Positions 57,804 through 61,934 of a stretch of 64,000 nt of DNA are shown here, in pieces. Origin of the DNA: Candidatus Bathyarchaeia archaeon (lineage in GTDB: Archaea > Thermoproteota > Bathyarchaeia > Bathyarchaeales > Bathycorpusculaceae). Every line of letters starts with the position of its first letter. Positions within the stretch are counted from its first letter, which is position 1. The DNA lies in contig JAVZNC010000001.1 of the NCBI GenBank assembly GCA_038882955.1, positions 160,001-224,000 of the forward strand, in the 5' to 3' direction. The position numbers and the translations under genes were made by a program. The notes beneath the pieces were generated by a model. It was given only the letters and a program-made list of their open reading frames with translations, had not been told where the DNA came from and searched no databases.

Positions 57804-58591
57804 GTACCAAAAAGCAAGTTTCAGTTGTAATTCGAACAAGGGATAAGGAAAGATTTCTAGAAAACCTTTTAGAAAGGCTGGCTATGCAGACGCTGTCACC
57901 ATCAGAAATAATAATTGTAAACAATTATTCTTCAGAAGAGGAAAGAAGGTTTCTCGAGAACCAAGTGTCAGAGTGTTTTTGGAACTTTTTCCGAGAAAGA
58001 AAGAATGCCCTTAAAATTATCGCCTTATCAGATGCAGAGTTTTCACATGCATATTCCACAAACCTAGGCGTACATGCCGCAGAAAACGAACTAGTCTGCA
58101 TAACAAACGCGCATTCTCTCCCAACGTCGTACCATTGGCTCCAAGATGGCGCAAGACACTTCATAAATCCAAGCGTCGCAGGAGTAAGCGGCTTCTTTTT
58201 GCCACACAGCGAAGGCAAGGTTTTTGGAAATTTGGATAAACTGTTGTACTATTTTTCGCAAAAATTTGTTTTGCATCAAGACTGGTGTTCCACGATTAAC
58301 TGCATAATTAGGAAATCATTATGGCAAGTTTACCCCTTCGACGAAAACCTACCGAAAATTATACCGCAAACTCGAAGGTATGGATTGGAGGATTATGATT
58401 GGAGTAAAGAAATGATTTTCAGAGGATACAAAATAATTGTTGACCCCTCATTCAGCGTTTTTCATTCCCATGGAAAAGGCGTTGATGAAATAATAAGAAA
58501 TGTTAGGGGCTACTTTGTTTATCGGCGGTTACAGCAAAAAATAAACCAGTTAAAAAGACCTAGAAAATCCTTCAGCAAGCTCCTAGCCTAA
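57800..58591 (+). CDS. GT2 glycosyltransferase
   Basis: VSVVIRT, EIIIV, FDENL, LEDYDW, VFHSH. Confidence 0.78.
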   Translation: MSTKKQVSVVIRTRDKERFLENLLERLAMQTLSPSEIIIVNNYSSEEERRFLENQVSECFWNFFRERKNALKIIALSDAEFSHAYSTNLGVHAAENELVCITNAHSLPTSYHWLQDGARHFINPSVAGVSGFFLPHSEGKVFGNLDKLLYYFSQKFVLHQDWCSTINCIIRKSLWQVYPFDENLPKIIPQTRRYGLEDYDWSKEMIFRGYKIIVDPSFSVFHSHGKGVDEIIRNVRGYFVYRRLQQKINQLKRPRKSFSKLLA

Positions 58592-59596
58592 CTTCTCCAA
58601 TACTAGCCATAAATGGTCGCATTCTGGTCTAACCAGCTCTTTTTCGCTTCCGTCCCTGCATTTGATTAGGCGCTCACCCGTATTTGGCGAAAATTCGCCG
58701 ATAATATTTGCAGGTATTCTATTTTTCTTCAAATTCTGCAAAACAATATTAGCCGAATCTCGTTCAGCAGCAATTAAAATGCTTCCAGAGGCAATCAAGC
58801 AAAGCGGGTCAATATCAAAGAAACGGCAAATTTGAAGGGTTTCTTTGGCGACTGGAATTTTCTCTTCATAAATTTTAAAGCCAAGTTTTGAAGCATCCGC
58901 CATTTCATGTATGCCGCCGGCTACGCCGCCTTCTGTGGGGTCATGCATGGCGTGAACTGCACTTGTTTTGAAGGCAGTTAGTGCATCTTTGACAACGCTG
59001 ATTTTTTCAAAGAAATTCTTGGCGTTAGCTAACGTTTCTTCGTCAACAGCCCTTTTTAATTCTTTTTCCATGTCTGAAGCGAGGATTGCAGTTCCTTCAA
59101 TTCCAGCGCTTTTCGTCAAAATTATTTTATCTCCAGCCTTAGCGTTTCCAGCAGTCACATAATTTCCTTTTTCCGTAACCCCCATCGCACAGCCGACAAC
59201 TATTGGATGAGTCAGCTCAGGTGTTACTTCGCAGTGTCCGCCAGCAATCGCTACCCCCAAATTTTTCGCCGCAGCATCCATTTGCGTGCATATAGTCTCA
59301 AGCATTTTTCTATCAGCCCTTTCTGGAAGTAGTATGCAAGAGAAAAAGAATGCTGGTTCAACGCCAAAAGTAGCAATATCATTCGCGTTAATGTTTAAAG
59401 CCAACCAGCCTATGCGCTCTAAAGCTCCAGTAATAGGGTCCATAGAAACAATCAAGGATTTATTGCCAACATCTATAACCGTGCCATCAAATCCTATTGA
59501 AGGCCCTAAAACGACTTCTTCACGTTCAAAACCTAGGTTTTTAAAAACAACATCTTGGAGAAATTCTATAGGAATTTTCCCAAGCGGCAACTTCAT
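58583..59596 (-). CDS. PurM/AIR-synthase-fold protein (HypE/ThiL/SelD superfamily), not HypE
   Basis: DPITG, NANDIA, GGHCE, HDPTEGG, LIASGS; lacks the C-terminal PRIC. Confidence 0.85.
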   Translation of the reverse strand: MKLPLGKIPIEFLQDVVFKNLGFEREEVVLGPSIGFDGTVIDVGNKSLIVSMDPITGALERIGWLALNINANDIATFGVEPAFFFSCILLPERADRKMLETICTQMDAAAKNLGVAIAGGHCEVTPELTHPIVVGCAMGVTEKGNYVTAGNAKAGDKIILTKSAGIEGTAILASDMEKELKRAVDEETLANAKNFFEKISVVKDALTAFKTSAVHAMHDPTEGGVAGGIHEMADASKLGFKIYEEKIPVAKETLQICRFFDIDPLCLIASGSILIAAERDSANIVLQNLKKNRIPANIIGEFSPNTGERLIKCRDGSEKELVRPECDHLWLVLEKLG

Positions 59597-59626
59597 TTTT
59601 GATCCTCTGAAATATAATTTCTTGTT

Positions 59627-60373
59627 TTAGCTTTTAAGCTGTGGGAGGCTGCGAAGAATAATTTTCAAAATTGGTATTGCGACAATTAATCCAATAAGCA
59701 TTTGCCCTATATTTATTGGAATTTCCACGATGGCTGCTGGCTTACTTAATACGAACTGCTCGTAAAGAAAATATCCGCAGACCATCTCTAAACCGCCAAT
59801 GATTATTGCAAAAATGGAACGCCCAAGTTCTGGTTCAATTCTAAAACCCATAAAGACTATTAGCAGAACTGAGGCACCGCCTAGAGAATACCAAAGCTCT
59901 GGAGGAACAAAAACGCTAAATGTAGGATTTTGAGGTTGAGGGAAACCAATGTACAAGTCTACTTTTCCAACGTAATACATGGAGCCAGCCATTGCAAGTA
60001 AAACACCTACAACAATTCCTAGTATCGACGTAAAAATTTTCCATTTAAACCTCGAAGTCCGCACAAGAAATCTCTTATTTAAGAAACCCACTATTGCTCC
60101 CTCAAAACTTTTTATTATAAAAGTTCCTGGAGCAAATTGTGGTGCTACCAACATATCTGCTATGGAGGCACCAACTCCACCGGCGAAGGCGCCTACATAA
60201 GGTCCAAAAAGCAATGCAGCTACATAAATCACTGTTTCACCTATGTTAAAGTACCCTGTTGTTGCTGGAACGTTTACTATGAAGGCTATCGTTGCAATGC
60301 ATACTAATGCAGCAAAAACTGCGGATATAGTAAACTGAAAGGTTGTTTTCGCAGAGTTAACCTTCGGTCTCAT
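59627..60373 (-). CDS. ECF transporter substrate-specific S component
   Basis: AVFAALV, PATTGYFNIGE, LLFGP..GAFAGGVG..IAD. Confidence 0.85.
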   Translation of the reverse strand: MRPKVNSAKTTFQFTISAVFAALVCIATIAFIVNVPATTGYFNIGETVIYVAALLFGPYVGAFAGGVGASIADMLVAPQFAPGTFIIKSFEGAIVGFLNKRFLVRTSRFKWKIFTSILGIVVGVLLAMAGSMYYVGKVDLYIGFPQPQNPTFSVFVPPELWYSLGGASVLLIVFMGFRIEPELGRSIFAIIIGGLEMVCGYFLYEQFVLSKPAAIVEIPINIGQMLIGLIVAIPILKIILRSLPQLKS

Positions 60374-60384
60374 TGCGAAACCTG

Positions 60385-60408
60385 ATAGTGTAGTTACAAC
60401 TATACTAT
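60385..60408. promoter_or_regulatory. Inverted repeat ATAGTGTAGTT-AC-AACTATACTAT, candidate operator
   Basis: 11-bp arms with one mismatch, lying between a TATA-like element and the ECF-S ATG. Confidence 0.6.
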
Positions 60409-60422
60409 ATTAGTTTTTCTAC

Positions 60423-61814
60423 TTACAAAAGAAGCTTTAAATCGTCAATTGCTTGTAAAACCTTTTTGCCGCGTTCTGTTATCTTGAAAAATTTTCTTCT
60501 ATCTTTTTTGTAACTTGCTATTAATCCTTTTCCATAAAGTTCTGTGAGGTGCTGGTATATTGCGCCTCTGGTCATTGTTTTTCCAAGTTTTTCCCACAAA
60601 TCGTAGCCGTAAGCATCCCTTTCTTTGAGAATCCTTAAGATTTTCTCTTTAGTGCTTATTTCTAAGCCTAAAACTGCCGTTTTCTGCTTTTTCGTTAACG
60701 CTTGCAGTATATCTGTGGCTTTAAGCCCGCTTCCAGTTATTGGACATACAACGCTTTCGTTTTTGGTGATGTGTCCTTCCTTAACAAGCTTTTTCAAAGC
60801 GGCAATTTCAGCTGAACTTGATGGTTCTGCAAATATGCCTTCATGTTTGGCTATGGTGAGTTCTGCCGTGAAAATTTCGCTGTCAGAAACTGTTAGGGCT
60901 AAGCCTCCTGACTCTTTTATCGCTTTTATTGCAAGTTCGCTTTGTATTGGCTCCTTAACAAGTAGGGCAAGGGCCTTTGTTGAAGGCTTTGCTGATATAC
61001 GCCTTTTCTTAAGTAGCATTTTAATTATTGCTGAGCTTCCCTCGGGTTGGACGCCGACCATTTTTGGAAGCTTTTTCGCTAAGCCTAACCGTTCAAGTGC
61101 TTTGAAACCTTTCCAAAGTGAATATATTGTTCCGCCGCTGCCCATAGAAACAATCATCCAGTCTGGAACTCCAAACTGTTCAAAAATTTCGTATGAAATT
61201 GTTTTCTGCGCCTCAATTACAAGCGGATTCAACTCCGCAGTTGCCTGATACCAGTTTAGTTCTTTTGCTAATGCCTCGGCTCTACGTATTGCGTCGTCAA
61301 TGAACTCTCCAAATTCTTCAATAGCAGCATCATAAACTAGCATTTGCGCCAGTTTACCAACATCAACAAGCTTAGGTACTATAACGTGGCAGTTCAGTCC
61401 CGCCTTTGCACAATAAGCAGCTATAGAGGCGCCGAGGTTTCCCATGCTTGCGCATACAAGCGTGTCATGTTTAAGGTCTAAAGCATTTGATGTTAGTAGG
61501 GCGGCAGCGCGGTCTCTATACGAGTTTGTCGGGTGTCTAGTTTCATCTTTTAGGTAAAGCTCTTTCAAACCTAAAAGTTTGGCAAGCCTATCAGCCCTAT
61601 GTAGGGGAGTTCCGCCCTCGCCCAAAGTTATCATGTGTCTAACTGGCGGAAGAAGATGCCTATACCTCCAAAAGCCAGCATAACCAGAAACGCCTAGTTT
61701 GCATGCAGATGAAATAGGCACATTATAGTCTAGTAAGCCTCCACATTTTTCGCACAAGCCACGTGGAGGAAACAATGGAAACTTGGCGCCGCATTTAAGG
61801 CACTCTAAAGCCAT
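60423..61814 (-). CDS. Threonine-synthase-like fold-type II domain (PLP Lys to Arg) fused to PadR wHTH
   Basis: Zn ribbon, LGEGGTPL, PTNSYRDR, ASMGN, SMGSGGT, ITGSGLK; tail YGYDLW..GAIYQHL..GLI..RKFFKITERG; ATG at 61814. Confidence 0.85.
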   Translation of the reverse strand: MALECLKCGAKFPLFPPRGLCEKCGGLLDYNVPISSACKLGVSGYAGFWRYRHLLPPVRHMITLGEGGTPLHRADRLAKLLGLKELYLKDETRHPTNSYRDRAAALLTSNALDLKHDTLVCASMGNLGASIAAYCAKAGLNCHVIVPKLVDVGKLAQMLVYDAAIEEFGEFIDDAIRRAEALAKELNWYQATAELNPLVIEAQKTISYEIFEQFGVPDWMIVSMGSGGTIYSLWKGFKALERLGLAKKLPKMVGVQPEGSSAIIKMLLKKRRISAKPSTKALALLVKEPIQSELAIKAIKESGGLALTVSDSEIFTAELTIAKHEGIFAEPSSSAEIAALKKLVKEGHITKNESVVCPITGSGLKATDILQALTKKQKTAVLGLEISTKEKILRILKERDAYGYDLWEKLGKTMTRGAIYQHLTELYGKGLIASYKKDRRKFFKITERGKKVLQAIDDLKLLL

Positions 61815-61934
61815 GATTCCAATCCACAAATTACACTATAATTATTTGCACCTTAAAGTTCTTTTAAGCATTTACAAGCACTAATAAAATGGGAAAACTC
61901 TAAATGTGAGTATTATGCTGATAGATAGCAAGCC

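Follow-up and report, generated by a model that had tools for sequence, protein, structure and literature searches.

A candidate vitamin B6 acquisition locus in Bathyarchaeia, with a threonine synthase-like PadR fusion as its predicted regulator

The bacterial PdxR regulons described in PMC5320631 contain pdxST, pdxK and pdxU. Among transporters, PdxU and PdxU2/HmpT are assigned to COG4720/PF07155 and RibU to COG3601 (PMC9997740, PMC5397151); a 2023 survey presents B6 transporters as mostly unknown and alternative B6 kinases as still to be found (PMC9997740). In Archaea, B6 transport, salvage and regulation are largely blank. Here we describe a three-gene locus from a Candidatus Bathyarchaeia archaeon, in a window of 64,000 nucleotides (the whole stretch analysed, positions 160,001 to 224,000 of contig JAVZNC010000001.1, or G000:C1:160001-224000). 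The locus encodes a threonine synthase (ThrC)-like domain fused to a PadR winged helix, the S component of an energy-coupling factor (ECF) transporter and a PurM-fold enzyme, with a 22-bp palindrome ahead of the transporter gene. The system probably concerns vitamin B6; the more specific view that the cluster is a B6 acquisition unit under a B6-responsive repressor is, in our judgement, evenly poised. By analogy, the locus is probably a new archaeal analogue of bacterial PdxR-pdxU-pdxK: we found no description of a PALP-PadR regulator or of a PurM-fold B6 enzyme in the literature outside the supplementary tables of PMC9997740, PMC5397151 and PMC5320631, which may list archaeal PdxK/PdxU calls or regulon members.

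The source genome (G000) spans 1.54 Mb in 31 contigs, with an estimated contamination of 6.1%. The list of open reading frames (ORFs) of the window places three minus-strand ORFs in a row (60423-61829, 59627-60373 and 58583-59596), spaced by 49 and 30 bp. An earlier note on this DNA had described a co-oriented trio with these gaps and with this domain make-up; the ORFs agree, as do the matches of their products to PALP and PadR, to PF07155, and to AIRS and AIRS_C. The genes and the predicted operator are as follows:

60423..61814, minus strand: regulator gene, ThrC-like pyridoxal 5'-phosphate (PLP)-fold (fold type II) sensor with a C-terminal PadR winged helix; the reading frame is already open at TTG 61829
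60386..60407, strand not applicable: predicted operator, a 22-bp palindrome of consensus TAGTATAGTT-NN-AACTATACTA, between the regulator stop and the S gene, 12 nt before the S ATG
59627..60373, minus strand: ECF-transporter S component of PF07155 (PdxU/HmpT) type by family profile, long form with an insertion of about 70 aa
58583..59596, minus strand: HypE-like PurM-fold enzyme (AIRS + AIRS_C), predicted to bind ATP, without the C-terminal Cys tail

The true start of the regulator is most likely ATG 61814 (MALECLKCG...) rather than TTG 61829, because the database copy is 463 aa long. The S and PurM-like genes are likely co-transcribed, given the 30-bp gap between them.

The regulator matches PALP (2.1e-75) and PadR (5.2e-12), and the PadR domain is likewise found in seven distant fusions. 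The protein is similar to the solved threonine synthase 2zsj (1.4e-63), and the following elements can be placed within it:

61743..61802, minus strand: N-terminal zinc-ribbon-like motif CxxC...CxxC, its four Cys invariant in 13 fusion proteins
60732..61631, minus strand: PALP (PLP-fold) sensor domain, residues 67-366 of the 468-aa ORF, with the Gly-rich PLP-phosphate loop MGSGGT and TGSGLK kept and the ThrC substrate-site residues lost
61515..61517, minus strand: codon AGA (Arg105) where the PLP Schiff-base lysine belongs, from alignments to 2zsj and 6cgq
60453..60641, minus strand: PadR-type winged helix-turn-helix (wHTH), residues 397-459, PF03551 at 46 bits for a cut-off of 27

The earlier note had spoken of a 'dead' PLP enzyme, and the alignments bear this out at the Schiff-base motif, which reads SYRDR in the window protein and SFKDR in the solved threonine synthases 2zsj and 6cgq. 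Both unfused ThrC paralogues of the source genome retain SFKDR in alignment, and they also carry the zinc-ribbon-like CxxC motif. One of them, on contig C21, has the full set of canonical ThrC motifs (CASTGNTSAS, NSINPFRIEGQKT and VGNAGN), where the window protein reads CASMGNLGAS, AELNPLVIEAQKT and MGSGGT. At the O-phosphohomoserine substrate site, the window protein has SMGNL and AELNPLV instead of STGNT and N-S...NPxR. The division of these residues between substrate site and cofactor site is the one that we presume from ThrC structures.

The same pattern runs through the relatives of the regulator. A survey restricted to one genome per species kept 80 loci, comprising 28 full-length PALP-PadR fusions and 52 unfused homologues. 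The lysine is kept in all 52 unfused homologues; among the 28 public fusions, its position is occupied by Arg in 17, Lys in five, Ile in four, and Val and Leu in one each. The Arg of 'NPxR' and the STGNT loop are missing from the window protein and from 28/28 fusions, including the five with Lys, and the Gly-rich cofactor-phosphate loop and TGxGLK are retained across the fusions. These residues support the view that in the window protein, as in each of the 28 fusions examined, the fused PLP-fold domain is not catalytic. Since the substrate site is lost and the cofactor pocket kept, we propose PLP or a phosphorylated vitamer as the ligand, which would thus be the effector of the regulator. Read from its residues, the database name 'threonine synthase' is a misannotation: it stems from a TIGR00260 score of 201 bits, over the cut-off of 167.1, which does not override the missing residues. 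NF004170 spans the whole protein with 399.7 bits, under its cut-off of 421.

Three further features of the fusion family can be recorded. A Bathyarchaeia subclade of fusions (L116-L119, L125) has the Schiff-base Lys without the ThrC substrate residues, and is recognizable by the signatures CATNGNHGAS and LxTSSGLK; by analogy with MocR regulators, its members may bind PLP covalently. In four other Bathyarchaeia loci (L109, L112, L113, L114), the gene directly upstream of the fusion regulator, on the opposite strand, encodes an unfused Lys-bearing ThrC of 40-42% identity, and may be either the trace of the duplication that gave the sensor or an extra regulon member. Finally, a full-length fusion with 52% identity and Arg at the Lys site occurs in a Candidatus Jordarchaeum record (L120), outside Thermoproteota, which hints at lateral transfer or a binning error.

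The palindrome before the transporter gene, pointed out in the earlier note, stands well clear of the background. On the plus strand, positions 60386-60407 read TAGTGTAGTTACAACTATACTA and abut an AT-rich, TATA-like stretch. The palindrome is the sole match in the window at up to three mismatches, and none of 100 shuffles gave any match. A position weight matrix (PWM) derived from 12 orthologous sites gives 34.2 bits at this place against 12.0 for the next best in the whole 1.54-Mb genome, the scan of which holds no second operator above 12 bits. Twenty loci of relatives were then scored with wide flanks: the palindrome is present in 11/11 loci that encode the regulator (25.3-37.1 bits) and missing from 9/9 loci that have the PurM-like gene without the regulator (at most 8.4 bits), the 11 positive loci having contributed to the PWM and the nine negative ones being independent of it. 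Eight of these nine have the S gene. The tie between regulator and palindrome that the earlier note had assumed is thus reflected in strict co-occurrence. In one locus (L083, TAGTCTAGTT..AACTAGACTA), a compensatory change in both arms preserves the symmetry. It is very probable that the regulator acts on the predicted operator at 60386-60407, and its binding there as a dimer, which the co-occurrence of the palindrome supports, is a prediction. Because the palindrome abuts the TATA-like stretch, promoter occlusion is the simplest reading, under which the regulator would be a repressor.

The second element of the earlier note, ahead of the regulator, was a matching half-site:

61829..61838, minus strand: half-site-like 10-mer TAGTGTAATT before the regulator, 9/10 bases, at chance level

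The 10-mer is there, as claimed, but its meaning as a half-site did not hold up: the window contains five 10-mers of this quality against 4.64 expected, and 47 of 100 shuffles reach five. Autoregulation in the source genome is therefore likewise at chance level, and the 10-mer is possibly part of a promoter. In the distant loci that carry the trio (L057, L060, L073), the search for palindromes gave just a weak AT-rich one in L073, which is not counted as evidence.

The S component matches PF07155 at 103.3 bits (cut-off 26.7; 1.9e-29). It is the only PF07155 gene in the source genome, where PF12822 (RibU-type) has no match. A profile of 32 S proteins adjoining the PurM-like gene matches a single solved chain, 4hzu_S (1e-24), and no RibU structure at E-values up to 10. 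This supports, at the level of family profiles, an assignment to the PdxU/HmpT type and not to RibU, and provides the classification that the earlier note had called for. Chain S of 4HZU is HmpT/PdxU2; pyridoxamine was extracted from it, and its conserved pocket residues are E41, H84, Q87, Y120, N140 and Q143 (PMC4860826). Four of the six are identical in the alignment with the window protein (the equivalents of E41, Y120, N140 and Q143), and S136 of 4HZU chain S corresponds to E217. The energizing module is encoded elsewhere: ABC_tran, ABC_tran and CbiQ follow one another on contig C2, the sole ecfA-ecfA'-ecfT cluster of the genome, with no S gene adjoining. The S components come in a short form of 162-190 aa and a long form of about 237-283 aa, in which an insertion of about 70 aa contributes two further hydrophobic stretches; both forms adjoin the PurM-like gene.

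The third protein combines AIRS and AIRS_C domains and scores under the cut-offs of both the hypE model (TIGR02124, 130.7 against 251.6 bits) and the thiL model (TIGR01379, 90.8 against 184.15 bits; 7.7e-26). As the earlier note had seen, it has no PRIC: it ends in ...LEKLG, and the conserved motif at the end of its family is D(E/H)LW. A genuine HypE ends in PRIC and is encoded in the same window at 38768-39835 (minus strand; TIGR02124, 365 bits), 19 kb from the HypE-like gene; a genuine ThiL (263 bits) is encoded on contig C11. The AlphaFold2 model of the PurM-like protein (mean predicted local distance difference test score, 96.9) has HypE as its best fold match in the PDB (template modelling (TM) score 0.83-0.85, 24-25% identity, Foldseek 4.8e-31), followed by SelD and ThiL (TM about 0.7-0.74). 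D37, D53, D73 and D219 are invariant in 51 aligned sequences, HypE and ThiL among them. Given the scores under the cut-offs, the genuine HypE and ThiL elsewhere, the invariant Asp set and the fold, we take the protein to be an ATP-binding HypE-like paralogue, and on this comparison the database name 'HypE / hydrogenase maturation factor' is wrong. That it is a B6 kinase, as analogy with the bacterial regulons would have it, is a tentative assignment to which we give well under even weight.

Many relatives, but not the source genome, have a second class of HypE-like paralogues with 30-37% identity (E about 1e-35 to 1e-50); examples are G030:C14:31530-32537 and G019:C11:37188-38138. A search for fused forms of the enzyme returned one 631-aa database protein (P0242), which is 37% identical, a value similar to that of the second class, and carries an inserted HEM4 (uroporphyrinogen-III synthase) domain; it is probably of that paralogue class and has no bearing on B6. 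The long N-terminal extension of the PurM-like ORF in L043 looks like spurious upstream read-through and not like a domain.

The linkage of the three genes, for which the earlier note had proposed a comparison across genomes, recurs outside the source genome. PurM-like orthologues (E <=1.2e-81) are present in 39/41 genomes of the order; of the 20 loci of relatives, 19 have the S gene beside the PurM-like gene and 11 have the regulator. A further 40 PurM-like loci from outside the order were picked from matches with listed coordinates and spread over families. The S gene occurs in 15 of these (directly adjacent in 14) and the regulator in three; S is the only neighbour family to recur in more than five of the 40. 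Viewed from the regulator, 22 of the 28 fusion loci have the S gene and 11 the PurM-like gene, and in three of the six without S, the contig ends shortly downstream of the regulator gene. The enzyme family as such is found at E<=1e-60 in 235/401 sampled genomes of the phylum. Where S does not lie within two genes (23 loci), the 95 flanking ORFs contain no recurrent family. A PfkB kinase neighbours the enzyme in four loci without nearby S (L048, L052, L056, L079), which is probably local synteny.

Several observations connect the locus with vitamin B6. As the earlier note had suggested checking, genes for B6 supply are scarce in this group: neither PdxS nor PdxJ was found in the source genome (95.6% complete), PdxS is over cut-off in 2/41 genomes of the order, and PdxK/PdxY in 0/80 sampled Thermoproteota genomes. 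Complementarity with PdxK was tried as a contrast and is uninformative, since PdxK/PdxY is missing irrespective of the PurM-like gene. In another Bathyarchaeia order (L042), the PurM-like gene, pdxS and pdxT are consecutive on one strand; in another class (L047), pdxS-pdxT lies 2.7 kb from the PurM-like and S genes. RibK, for comparison, occurs in 0/60 PurM-like loci. In a Nitrososphaerales record (L142), a PALP-PadR fusion that has Ile in the Lys position is encoded divergently from pdxS-pdxT, and the intergenic region holds a 24-bp palindrome, ATATATAATCTGCAGCCTATATAT. Close variants of it occur upstream of the regulator in L134 and in the spacer that separates regulator and S in L123, L124 and L126, the last of which has the PurM-like gene as well. 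This palindrome is the top hit in each of the five loci (20.7-35.9 bits against at most 18.8 for the next best) with a PWM derived from the same five sites. The shared palindrome type therefore describes one regulator clade with one operator type, placed at pdxST in one genome and at the transporter elsewhere. In L134, a weaker second copy (18.8 bits, 9940-9963) precedes a VIT1-family gene, possibly another member of the regulon.

The distribution of S over 401 genomes of the phylum, in which kin are not independent, was compared with that of PdxS and RibH:

S present, PdxS-negative and RibH-negative genomes: 173/195
S present, PdxS-positive and RibH-negative genomes: 23/66
S present, PdxS-negative and RibH-positive genomes: 10/24
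S present, PdxS-positive and RibH-positive genomes: 5/116

By these four classes, riboflavin auxotrophy predicts S about as well as B6 auxotrophy does, and the profiles fail to separate the two vitamins because both auxotrophies co-occur. A hand tally within the RibH-less families f13, f25, f27, f32 and f34 finds S in 52/56 PdxS-negative and 10/27 PdxS-positive genomes, and favours B6.

The source genome looks auxotrophic for B6, riboflavin and the pyrimidine of thiamine, as judged by its gene content: 6,7-dimethyl-8-ribityllumazine (DMRL) synthase and ThiC were not found in it, and RibK, ThiL and ThiD, the last as ThiDN, are present. ThiC is missing in 32/41 genomes of the order. No riboflavin transporter was identified in the source genome by PF12822 or PF07155, of which the latter matches the window S component only. 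A CytX-type putative transporter of hydroxymethylpyrimidine (HMP) in the same genome (L022, G000:C7:9617-13348; 292 bits, just short of the cut-off of 310) overlaps the start of the ThiD-ThiN fusion gene, and the two look like a thiamine-pyrimidine salvage pair.

The mechanism that we propose is the following. The regulator would be a ThrC paralogue that lost catalysis, kept its cofactor pocket and gained a PadR domain, and its dimer would bind the 22-bp palindrome over the core promoter of the S gene. DNA binding would be favoured once the former cofactor site holds PLP or a phosphorylated vitamer, and with enough B6 in the cell the S and PurM-like genes would be shut off. The organism would need to import B6 because it appears to have no PdxS/PdxT or PdxJ route; the S component would dock on the single, separately encoded EcfA-EcfA'-EcfT module and import a B6 vitamer. 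The HypE-like enzyme would then use ATP on this vitamer, the likeliest reaction being 5' phosphorylation, the role of pdxK in bacterial PdxR regulons. In its fullest form, this proposal describes a Thermoproteota B6 system in which a disabled ThrC-PadR PLP sensor controls pdxST, a PdxU-like importer and a HypE-like enzyme, the latter supplying the archaeal pyridoxal/pyridoxine/pyridoxamine kinase that is missing so far, as a non-orthologous substitute for PdxK and the first PurM alcohol kinase; in that form we regard it as possible yet doubtful.

A number of observations pull away from this proposal. We know of no alcohol kinase in the PurM superfamily, and both sequence and fold place the enzyme closest to HypE, a carboxamide dehydratase, followed by SelD and ThiL. 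Adjacency to pdxST is seen in just 2/60 PurM-like loci and 1/28 fusion loci, and in four fusion loci the direct neighbour is an unfused Lys-type ThrC. Two genomes (G007 and G008) have PdxS and ThiC yet carry the full trio. Across the 401 genomes, the anti-correlation of S with RibH is as strong as that with PdxS, and family f31 (RibH 12/12, PdxS 1/12) has S in just 3/12. The PurM-like gene is present at E<=1e-60 in 29/116 genomes positive for both PdxS and RibH, and family f30 has it at E<=1e-40 in 20/23 genomes and S in 0/23. Two residues of the S pocket differ, H84 being replaced by K88 and Q87 by E91, both invariant across the S family, and HmpT was first predicted as a carrier of HMP (PMC4860826). 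The kinase gap itself may not be real, since the source genome has a ThiDN of the COG0351 family, whose ThiD2/PdxK subgroup phosphorylates B6 vitamers (PMC9997740).

The alternative that survives best keeps the B6 regulon and gives the enzyme another reaction: ATP-dependent activation of a carbonyl or amide oxygen, of the HypE/PurM type (leading to dehydration, amidine formation or cyclisation), or ThiL-like phosphorylation of a phosphate, with an imported B6-related compound or an intermediate of PLP homeostasis as substrate. To our knowledge, characterized PurM members act on amide or formyl oxygens, on phosphate or on selenide, and HypE is the best match by both sequence and fold; the enzyme moreover occurs without the transporter, and beside pdxST in a PLP prototroph (L042), and ThiD is available as a possible B6 kinase. 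On the other side, we know of no step in B6 pathways that needs HypE/PurM-type chemistry. The bacterial PdxR regulons described in PMC5320631, besides, pair the transporter with a kinase. We consider this alternative rather unlikely.

A thiamine-related cargo is distinctly unlikely. Here, the transporter would carry HMP or another thiamine-related compound, the enzyme would be a ThiL-like protein of thiamine salvage, and the PLP fold of the regulator would be incidental. ThiC is indeed missing from the source genome and most of its order, and the enzyme does match the thiL model; the source genome, however, already has its CytX-type putative HMP transporter with ThiDN, plus a genuine ThiL. In the archaeal thiamine regulators known so far, the sensor is of ThiN type. 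Related fusion regulators, like the PurM-like gene, are found at pdxST and not at thi genes, and nine ThiC-positive genomes of the order still have the PurM-like gene. In favour of a thiamine-related cargo, the closest solved S component, 4hzu_S, was annotated as HmpT, and HMP resembles pyridoxine (PMC4860826).

The regulator might also sense an amino acid or a metabolite of the threonine pathway (threonine, O-phosphohomoserine), and control uptake and activation of an amino-acid-related nutrient. The descent of the sensor domain from ThrC would fit, as would the unfused Lys-type ThrC that adjoins the fusion in 4/28 loci (L109, L112, L113, L114). What makes this highly unlikely is that other residues stand in place of those for substrate phosphate and carboxylate (STGNT, N-S, Arg) in the window protein as in 28/28 fusions, with the cofactor-phosphate loop kept, and that one fusion regulator adjoins pdxST; the ECF S components known to us carry vitamins or metals and not amino acids, barring predicted Trp and Met-precursor types. 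Riboflavin import by a RibU-like S component is barely tenable: the family name of PF07155 ('ECF-type riboflavin transporter'), a weak PRK13661 match (28.5 bits against a cut-off of 99), the source genome with RibK and without DMRL synthase, and the strong anti-correlation of S with RibH speak for it, and it was rated low on the PDB profile search without RibU, the COG split between RibU and PdxU/HmpT (PMC5397151, PMC9997740) and the lack of RibK in 60 loci, to which can be added that S still tracks PdxS absence in RibH-less families, that archaeal ribU is reported under RbkR control (PMC5397151), and that the RibK ORF of the source genome is short (144 aa).

With B6 retained as the probable subject of the system, three candidates come out of the locus: an archaeal regulator that would respond to PLP, with a defined 22-bp operator; a B6 importer; and a salvage enzyme. 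The widespread database names of the regulator and the enzyme, 'threonine synthase' and 'HypE / hydrogenase maturation factor' respectively, are corrected on the way. A metabolic dependency is also outlined: this Bathyarchaeia order appears auxotrophic for B6 and riboflavin, and often for thiamine pyrimidine.

Two neighbouring features of the window are recorded for completeness. The spacer at about 61840-61935, between the regulator and the divergent small gene 61935-62333, has a stretch conserved across genera (also in L081-L087 and L100) that reads ...GCTTGCTAT.TATCAGCATAA.ACTC.CATTTAG..TTTCCCATT... and may be the promoter or leader of the divergent gene; Rfam has zero matches anywhere in the window, this spacer included. 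Near the genuine HypE, a 760-aa ORF at 33992-36274 (plus strand) might be another hyp gene.

Each part of the locus can be set beside a described counterpart. The PurM-like enzyme shares AIRS and AIRS_C, the conserved Asp set and the fold with HypE, ThiL and SelD; unlike HypE, it has no PRIC tail, and it is linked to a transporter and not to hyp genes. The S component belongs to the same Pfam family as PdxU and as HmpT/PdxU2 (4HZU chain S), and would similarly depend on a shared EcfAA'T module; it differs from HmpT/PdxU2 by its insertion of about 70 aa and its archaeal host, and B6 is its candidate substrate. With the threonine synthases 2zsj, 6cgq and 1uim, the regulator has in common an N-terminal zinc ribbon and a fold-type II PLP domain; it departs from them by Arg in place of Lys, by the replacement of the substrate-phosphate Arg/Asn/Ser and of STGNT, and by the added PadR domain.

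As a whole, the regulator recalls other vitamin regulators derived from enzymes. ThiR, a ThiN domain with a wHTH, follows the same design principle, and controls vitamin synthesis/uptake genes via palindromic operators. RbkR, a riboflavin kinase with a wHTH, is likewise an enzyme-derived vitamin regulator with palindromic operators and with synthesis and uptake genes among its targets (PMC5397151). Sensor fold and presumed vitamin set the window regulator apart from both, and RbkR keeps its enzyme activity, whereas the window sensor has lost catalytic residues. PdxR comes closest: it too joins a sensor derived from a PLP enzyme to a winged helix, is a local regulator often divergent from pdxST, as is the fusion of L142, and has a PF07155-type transporter and a salvage enzyme among its targets (PMC5320631). 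In PdxR, however, the wHTH is N-terminal and of GntR type, and is joined to a fold-type I aminotransferase domain in which the Lys is kept, whereas the window regulator has a C-terminal PadR wHTH and a fold-type II ThrC domain, with the Lys mostly lost across the fusions; the host here is an archaeon with a TATA-type promoter, and the presumed salvage gene is of PurM fold and not of ribokinase fold. By this analogy, the regulator is predicted to work like MocR/PdxR, yet it is no member of that family.

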